Assembly: GCF_003334255.1 (NCBI RefSeq)
Contig: NZ_QOWU01000210.1
DNA: 616 nt
Source: Escherichia coli
GTDB taxonomy: Bacteria > Pseudomonadota > Gammaproteobacteria > Enterobacterales > Enterobacteriaceae
Direction: 5' to 3' (one strand)
Each line of letters begins with the position of its first letter. Within the stretch, counting starts at the first letter, position 1. The position numbers were made by a program, and so were the translations under genes. Below, piece after piece: positions 1 through 616 of this stretch. The notes under the pieces are model-generated. The model was not told the origin of the DNA. It saw nothing but the letters and a program-made list of their open reading frames with translations, and did no database searches.

Positions 1-616
1 CCTGAATCAGACGGCCCAATTCATCATATTCCCGGCGCAATTCCAGCCCGTCAGGCCCGGTGGCTGACGTTAACTGGTTGTGGTGGTTATAGTAAAACGC
101 CGATGCCCTGCCATCCGGCGTGGTTATGCGCGTGATGAGGCCCGTCACCACATCCGGGCTGTACTCTGTTGTCCTGCCTGCGGCATCCGTCTGTGCCCTG
201 AGCCTGCCCACGGCGTCAAACTGACTCTGCGTGACGCTGCCGTCCGCGTGTTCCTTTTTCACCACCCGCTTCAGCCCGGCTTCGCCCTGCGTGTGCAGCA
301 CTTCACGGCGGTCCAGGCTGTCGGTGATGGTGATGCGGTCTTTCTCATACTGATACGTGTAGCTTAAGCCTGCCGGGTTTAGCTGTTCTGTCACCCGCCC
401 GTCGCTGTCGTAACGGTAACGGATTTCCGGCCGGCCCGTGTGACGGTGCGCCACCATCCGGCCCCGGTATTTATCATCGTAAGTAAAGCTGCGCACCTGT
501 TTGCCACTACGGTCATACACCACCGCCAGTTCGCCGCGTGGCGTCCAGCCATAGCGCACCAGCGGCGCGGCAGGTAAATTCTCCGGGTATTCCGGGTCGT
601 GCGTCAGCCACACGGC
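1..616 (-). CDS. rhsD: Rhs-family core protein (YD-repeat polymorphic toxin scaffold), internal fragment, partial at both ends; RhsD/E-like rather than RhsA/B/C-like by recollection only
   Basis: Reverse-complement translation (first full codon at 616..614, last at 4..2) gives 205 codons with no stop: AVWLTHDPEYPENLPAAPLVRYGWTPRGELAVVYDRSGKQVRSFTYDDKYRGRMVAHRHTGRPEIRYRYDSDGRVTEQLNPAGLSYTYQYEKDRITITDSLDRREVLHTQGEAGLKRVVKKEHADGSVTQSQFDAVGRLRAQTDAAGRTTEYSPDVVTGLITRITTPDGRASAFYYNHHNQLTSATGPDGLELRREYDELGRLIQ. It contains at least eight YD-repeat-like units (e.g. VYDRSGKQV, RYRYDSDGRV, REYDELGRL), the hallmark of Rhs/YD-repeat proteins. The peptide matches my recollection of enterobacterial (E. coli-type) Rhs core sequence. 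The symbol rhsD is tentative: I cannot run an alignment, so the paralog could equally be another rhs copy. Family-level confidence is high, paralog-level confidence is low. Confidence 0.9.

Follow-up and report, generated by a model that had tools for sequence, protein, structure and literature searches.

The question raised by this locus is what a stretch of 616 bases of Escherichia coli DNA (the whole of the DNA analyzed, referred to here as the window) encodes and, if it is part of a gene, which copy of that gene it belongs to and what the encoded piece contributes to the protein. Rhs elements in E. coli have been known since 1984, and an earlier note on the window had placed it wholly inside an Rhs (YD-repeat) core gene on the minus strand, based on a stop-free reverse-strand frame of 205 codons. 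The same note had described the system as a known one and the window as conserved scaffold only. We consider it very probable that the window comes from the interior of an E. coli rhs gene on the minus strand, one of the enterobacterial clade I and of the rhsA/rhsB/rhsC (RhsABCF) subfamily; this confidence applies jointly to the segment and to the shell-toxin mechanism discussed below.

Open frame and family membership of the encoded peptide

The window has a G+C content of 61.2% over its 616 bases. Following six-frame translation, minus-strand frame 1 (read from base 616 to base 2) was found to contain 205 codons and no stops, with 5, 7, 10, 11 and 11 stops in the remaining five frames; window base 1 is the start of an incomplete codon 206 on the minus strand. 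Because the 205-codon frame is open at both window ends, it is missing from the ORF listing, which contains only short ORFs (24-95 codons), all in frames other than the Rhs frame. By itself, an open frame of this length at 61% G+C is only moderately unusual. Minus-strand frame 1 was stop-free in 19 of 20,000 mononucleotide shuffles and at least one of the six frames was stop-free in 302 of 20,000 (~1.5%), so that the open frame alone is modest evidence. The G+C content at codon positions 1, 2 and 3 (0.64, 0.47 and 0.73, respectively) follows a coding-like pattern. What decides in favour of a gene is homology: the peptide matches the RHS_core model, and annotated rhs genes in many E. coli genomes are 100% identical to the window in nucleotides.

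The NCBIfam equivalog model RHS_core (NF041261) matches window residues 1-205 (E-value: 2.4e-117) at profile positions 301-505 of 1261, with a score of 393 bits that must be read against fragment length, as the curated cut-off of 2000 bits applies to the whole protein and a fragment of 205 residues, whose score scales with its length, is too short to reach it. When the complete K-12 proteins are compared with the same cut-off of 2000 bits, RhsA scores 2647 bits and RhsB 2644 bits, and profile positions 1-1261 are covered. The YD-repeat model TIGR01643 (YD_repeat_2x) recognizes four stretches of the window peptide with 59.7 bits (cut-off: 15.8), and Pfam RHS_repeat (PF05593) gives four significant matches (E-value ≤ 6e-6; Table 1) and two weaker ones. 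Members of the YD-repeat family have multiple tandem repeats of ~20 residues with the consensus YxYDxxGR[LI], and the window peptide belongs to this family by its TIGR01643 and PF05593 matches and by its ~nine units in register. The profile searches proposed in the earlier note (RHS_core across the full 205 residues, TIGR01643 and Pfam RHS_repeat) were therefore all positive, and the re-translation that it also proposed (616 to 2) revealed no stop in the 205 codons. Its placement of the window wholly inside an Rhs core gene on the minus strand is upheld by the RHS_core match and the 100% identity to rhs genes.

Repeat units and position in the whole protein

The window peptide starts with a lead-in of 17 residues, which is followed by ~nine units of 20-23 residues each (Table 1). 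Some of these units are canonical (YRYDSDGRV, EYDELGRLI) and others are degenerate. The repeats were not seen in a DNA repeat search because they are too diverged at the DNA level; what this search did identify in the window was limited to two pairs, one of 19 nt (79% identity) and one of 15 nt (inverted, imperfect), both of which are compatible with chance.

Table 1. Coding segment and YD-repeat units of the 616-base window (positions in the window; residues of the window peptide unless RhsA/RhsB is named; E followed by residue numbers, predicted beta-strand)
Feature	Position	Strand	Sequence	Basis
Internal coding segment of Rhs core gene	2-616	minus		205 codons = RhsA/RhsB residues 293-497
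Lead-in, residues 1-17	566-616	minus	AVWLTHDPEYPENLPAA	Without YD register or RHS_repeat match
YD unit 1, degenerate	497-565	minus	PLVRYGWTPRGELAVVYDRSGKQ	Register; strands E21-24, E30-34; weak RHS_repeat match at residues 26-59 (E-value: 0.49)
YD unit 2	428-496	minus	VRSFTYDDKYRGRMVAHRHTGRP	Register; strands E40-46, E54-59
YD unit 3, canonical YxYDxxGR	365-427	minus	EIRYRYDSDGRVTEQLNPAGL	YRYDSDGRV at residue 67; RHS_repeat 69-100 (E-value: 6.1e-06)
YD unit 4	305-364	minus	SYTYQYEKDRITITDSLDRR	Register; strands E85-91, E94-99; within RHS_repeat match 69-100
YD unit 5, degenerate	236-304	minus	EVLHTQGEAGLKRVVKKEHADGS	Register; strands E104-110, E117-122
YD unit 6	173-235	minus	VTQSQFDAVGRLRAQTDAAGR	RHS_repeat 133-171 (E-value: 8.9e-08); best TIGR01643 stretch 117-152
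YD unit 7	107-172	minus	TTEYSPDVVTGLITRITTPDGR	RHS_repeat 158-190 (E-value: 3.6e-06); strands E149-152, E161-165
YD unit 8	44-106	minus	ASAFYYNHHNQLTSATGPDGL	RHS_repeat 176-204 (E-value: 4.4e-06); strands E171-176, E182-186
YD unit 9, truncated by window end	2-43	minus	ELRREYDELGRLIQ	YDELGRL at residue 197; within RHS_repeat 176-204

The window peptide was modelled with AlphaFold over its 205 residues, based on a shallow alignment of 3 paralogue sequences; the model has a mean pLDDT of 79.7 and a pTM of 0.63 and contains 17 beta-strands and no helix. Confidence is low only for residues 1-18 (pLDDT below 50, no predicted strand), which cover the lead-in before the repeats. When this model was compared to the PDB using Foldseek, the top 42 matches were all Rhs, Tc-BC or teneurin shells, with the Rhs effectors first. 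The leading matches were 8cp6, 7q97, 7pq5 and 8qjb (E-values: 1e-14 to 1e-11), and the first non-shell match, at rank 43, was to engineered OspA single-layer beta-sheets. The repeat region is predicted to have the beta-cocoon (YD-shell) fold; this holds as a prediction only, and a closed cocoon is beyond a piece of 205 residues.

The window is an exact, in-frame match to bp 8001-8616 of the K-12 MG1655 rhsA locus (L001), inside the rhsA CDS (bp 7125-11258), and the segment that it encodes is found at the same residues of the 1377-residue RhsA and of RhsB. The context of the whole protein can be read from these identical K-12 genes. A literal PAAR is located at RhsA residue 5, where the Pfam PAAR_motif match is weak (E-value: 0.13, residues 2-20, only the last ~19 model positions), and DUF6531 is clear at residues 46-123 (E-value: 2.8e-18). 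The Rhs-associated core domain (TIGR03696) is found at RhsA/RhsB residues 1170-1247, and PxxxxDPxGL is located at residue 1238 (PVTNTDPLGL in RhsA and PISDIDPLGL in RhsB). The C-terminus of K-12 RhsA carries the Pfam RHS domain (PF03527) and Ntox34 (E-value: 6.2e-43). The yibA gene is directly downstream of rhsA in K-12, and PMC3150448, citing Vlazny & Hill (1995), describes the RhsA C-terminus as growth-inhibitory and as neutralized by yibA. Neither rhsA nor rhsB has an annotated vgrG as a neighbour in K-12.

The window lies ~740 residues before the PxxxxDPxGL boundary and ~800 residues before the Ntox34 tip, and the 616 nt contain neither a toxin nor an immunity gene, nor do they contain a regulatory element. 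To judge from the context of the identical copies, the toxin and immunity partners would be located outside of the window. Conserved scaffold is thus all that the window contains, as the earlier note had stated, with RhsA 293-497 falling far upstream of the cleavage motif and the tip. The system is likewise an already described one, in agreement with that note, as the 616 bases are identical (616/616) to both K-12 rhsA and K-12 rhsB. The discovery value of the window is small, the shell-toxin-immunity logic and the structures having already been established.

In the K-12 rhsA locus (L001 7125-12121), the G+C content is 0.62 in the core, 0.41 in the last 430 nt (the tip) and 0.34 in yibA, and that of the upstream chromosomal genes is 0.53. 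With this sharp break, the locus shows the mosaic signature that is classical for Rhs elements. A G+C-rich core with an A+T-rich tip is the pattern described by Hill and colleagues, as summarized in PMC2935791. The K-12 rhs genes are also followed by "RHS repeat-associated core" fragments that stand as orphans (L001 12151-14725, L003 7134-10962 and L002 7388-8524), and beside them are ISAs1-family transposase genes as well as the small ORFs yibG, ybfC and a frameshifted Imm57 gene. These downstream orphans are displaced toxin tip/immunity cassettes and the old "H-repeat" element.

Copies in E. coli and assignment to a locus

When the four intact K-12 rhs loci were compared, a second exact copy (616/616 identical) was found in K-12 rhsB (L002 3078-3693). 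The neighbours by which the loci can be told apart are yibF/selA for rhsA, nikR for rhsB and ybfA/kdp for rhsC. The rhsA and rhsB coding sequences are identical from nt 82 to nt 1892, a run of 1811 nt in which the window lies; outside this run, scattered differences at 22 positions precede CDS nt 3690, from where the two genes diverge completely in the toxin tip. Assignment of the window to a single paralogue was tried and ruled out, as rhsA and rhsB are identical over all 616 nt. Because of this identity, it is impossible to assign the window, a stretch without flanks, to one rhs locus or allele.

Similar copies are widespread: a match to the window was found in 3885 of 5426 complete E. coli genomes, and 986 records are ≥ 99% identical to it. 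The number of places per E. coli genome has a median of 3 and a maximum of 7, and nearly all of these are chromosomal. Matches of 100% are annotated as rhsA/rhsB/rhsC genes in many E. coli genomes. Among the matches listed, the identical 616 nt are variously named rhsA, rhsB, rhsC, "RHS element protein RhsA" or "RHS element core protein" in RefSeq, and the copy of strain 11899A_LBHALD at the kdp/ybfA position (the rhsC site in K-12) is labelled rhsB. Automated paralogue names in the Rhs family are not reliable. The practical value of the window is in annotation: it is a multi-copy repeat, so reads or windows from these 616 nt are not uniquely mappable.

At the DNA level, a repeat of this kind, long and close to perfect between the rhs loci, can also act as the substrate of unequal crossing-over that depends on RecA, from which the name "rearrangement hot spot" derives. 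Laboratory selection in 1984 yielded such a recA-dependent event between rhsA and rhsB (PMC2935791). The "hot spot" role is an event obtained under laboratory selection and not a function. A scrambled core was identified in E. coli 11899A_LBHALD (NZ_CP130447.1, L005 4157-8244), in the rhs locus adjoining kdp/ybfA. The order of the segments is rhsA CDS nt 1-560, 591-1287 and 1158-2703, followed by 1-1287 again, and the scrambled core is annotated as frameshifted/incomplete pseudogenes. A 130-nt duplication junction in this strain is located inside the window region, and the window matches at 100% across a junction. The scramble is a true rearrangement or else a misassembly of a repeat, and assemblies can be scrambled across the rhs core repeat.

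Proposed mechanism, alternatives and known relatives

The open frame, family, repeat content, position in the protein, predicted all-beta fold and multi-copy identity have direct support, and the mechanism proposed beyond these points is modelled on solved and characterized relatives and on the literature with respect to encapsulation, autoproteolysis, type VI secretion system (T6SS) delivery and toxin/immunity activity. Each of the ~nine YD units would form a beta-hairpin, and together these would make up part of the N-terminal third of a spiral beta-sheet cocoon wall. By analogy, the full shell would enclose the variable C-terminal toxin (Ntox34 in K-12 RhsA), and an aspartyl autoprotease domain beside PxxxxDPxGL would free this toxin inside the shell. 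The N-terminal PAAR-like motif and DUF6531 may mount the protein on a VgrG spike for T6SS injection into neighbouring bacteria, as in the characterized relatives, while the product of a small downstream gene (yibA in the case of rhsA) would shield the producer. For K-12-like copies, delivery is the weakest step of this mechanism and is proposed by analogy only, because there is no adjacent vgrG and K-12 is not known to have a T6SS.

The latter observations bear on the reading that the Rhs protein encoded here is not a T6SS-delivered toxin at all and that it has another role, such as that of an intracellular toxin-antitoxin-like module or a role in envelope/capsule export. K-12 carries copies identical to the window although it is not known to have a T6SS, and no vgrG adjoins either rhsA or rhsB. 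A toxin-antitoxin-like role is reported for Salmonella Rhs (PMC7043789), and RhsA is linked to group 2 capsule export in the discussion of PMC2935791. However, long rhs genes in T6SS-positive E. coli are regarded as T6SS effectors (PMC7216683), all of the close solved relatives are T6SS effectors and the N-terminus has both a literal PAAR motif and DUF6531. Furthermore, this reading concerns the whole protein, and the window encodes shell either way. We consider it unlikely. It is highly doubtful that the copies in T6SS-less lineages (two in K-12) stay intact for a T6SS-independent role of the shell and toxin, be it another export route or an intracellular toxin-antitoxin-like function. If this were the case, the window's shell segment would do something other than package T6SS cargo.

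Two other readings concern the window more directly. The same sequence could come from a rearranged or pseudogenized rhs core remnant without a working function, given that the broken 11899A_LBHALD locus carries it at 100% and that pseudogenes annotated as partial "RHS repeat-associated core" also lie downstream in the K-12 loci. This is very unlikely: the K-12 remnants correspond to the 3' end of the core and not to residues 293-497, the window runs without a break and matches intact K-12 rhsA and rhsB exactly, its 205 codons contain neither a stop nor a frameshift and most of the matches listed lie under full-length annotated rhs genes. The remaining reading is that the minus-strand frame is incidental and that the real feature is on the plus strand, where it would be a structured RNA or an ORF at 80-367 together with a promoter-like site (64-93). 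This ORF does exist (95 codons, GTG, antisense to the rhs frame), and just upstream of it one weak plus-strand match to sigma-70 promoters, at 64-93, agrees at 9 of 12 positions (shuffles: 0.3 ± 0.6); the promoter-like count in the window is no more than chance. The ORF nevertheless falls far short of the minus-strand frame in length and has no NCBIfam match, long antisense ORFs are expected opposite a gene with 73% GC3, neither strand of the window has an Rfam match (E-value ≤ 1) and a promoter/terminator scan identified no terminator-like site in the window. As an incidental frame is ruled out by the minus-strand homology (E-value: 2.4e-117), we give this reading almost no weight. The 80-367 ORF, for which no family match was found, was rejected as a feature and most likely owes its existence to the GC3 richness of the gene to which it is antisense.

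The preferred reading, that of a shell segment of an RhsABCF-type protein, can be compared with known systems at increasing distance. K-12 RhsA (WP_000015300.1) and RhsB (WP_000015298.1) have zero differences from the window and share its core and YD register. K-12 RhsC is 96.1% identical at the nucleotide level (24 substitutions, 9 amino-acid differences) and has the same repeat layout. K-12 RhsD shares the family and the repeat layout with the window, but is a diverged paralogue (75% nucleotide and 73% amino-acid identity), and RhsD has been placed in a separate RhsDE subfamily (PMC2935791).

Following a sequence search against solved structures, the best match was to Tse5 of Pseudomonas aeruginosa (8cp6, E-value: 2.7e-30), followed by Vibrio RhsP (8h8a), 8qjb-d, 7q97, 7pq5, 8uy4 and, remotely, teneurin-like proteins. 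Tse5, a T6SS effector with an Rhs cocoon, is the closest solved structure, and the window aligns to residues 213-353 of its chain. It is related to full RhsA with an E-value of 6.9e-128 and is the top Foldseek match to the window model (E-value: 1.9e-14); unlike RhsA, it has another toxin tip and comes from another species, with ~25% identity in the structural alignment. In P. protegens RhsA (7q97), the window aligns to residues 432-619, downstream of the plug domain (residues 268-386; 10.1101/2021.09.14.460138), and the window would therefore represent cocoon wall just after the plug.

P. protegens RhsA, Photorhabdus Rhs-Tre23 (7pq5), Acinetobacter Tse15 (8uy4) and the Salmonella bongori core (8qjb-d) all have a YD cocoon around a toxin that is cleaved at an aspartyl protease motif (10.1101/2021.09.14.460138; PMC11461821), but they differ in their N-terminal loading modules (prePAAR/TMD/PAAR, clade domain or VgrG fusion). 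Tc toxin BC (4igl, 4o9x) and the animal teneurins (6fb3) have the same YD-shell fold (Foldseek E-values: 1e-9 to 1e-6, query-normalized TM-score up to 0.59) and are remote homologues. Tc-BC docks on the TcA pore and not on a T6SS, and the shells of the teneurins are empty and act as scaffolds at the surface of eukaryotic cells (10.1101/2021.09.14.460138).
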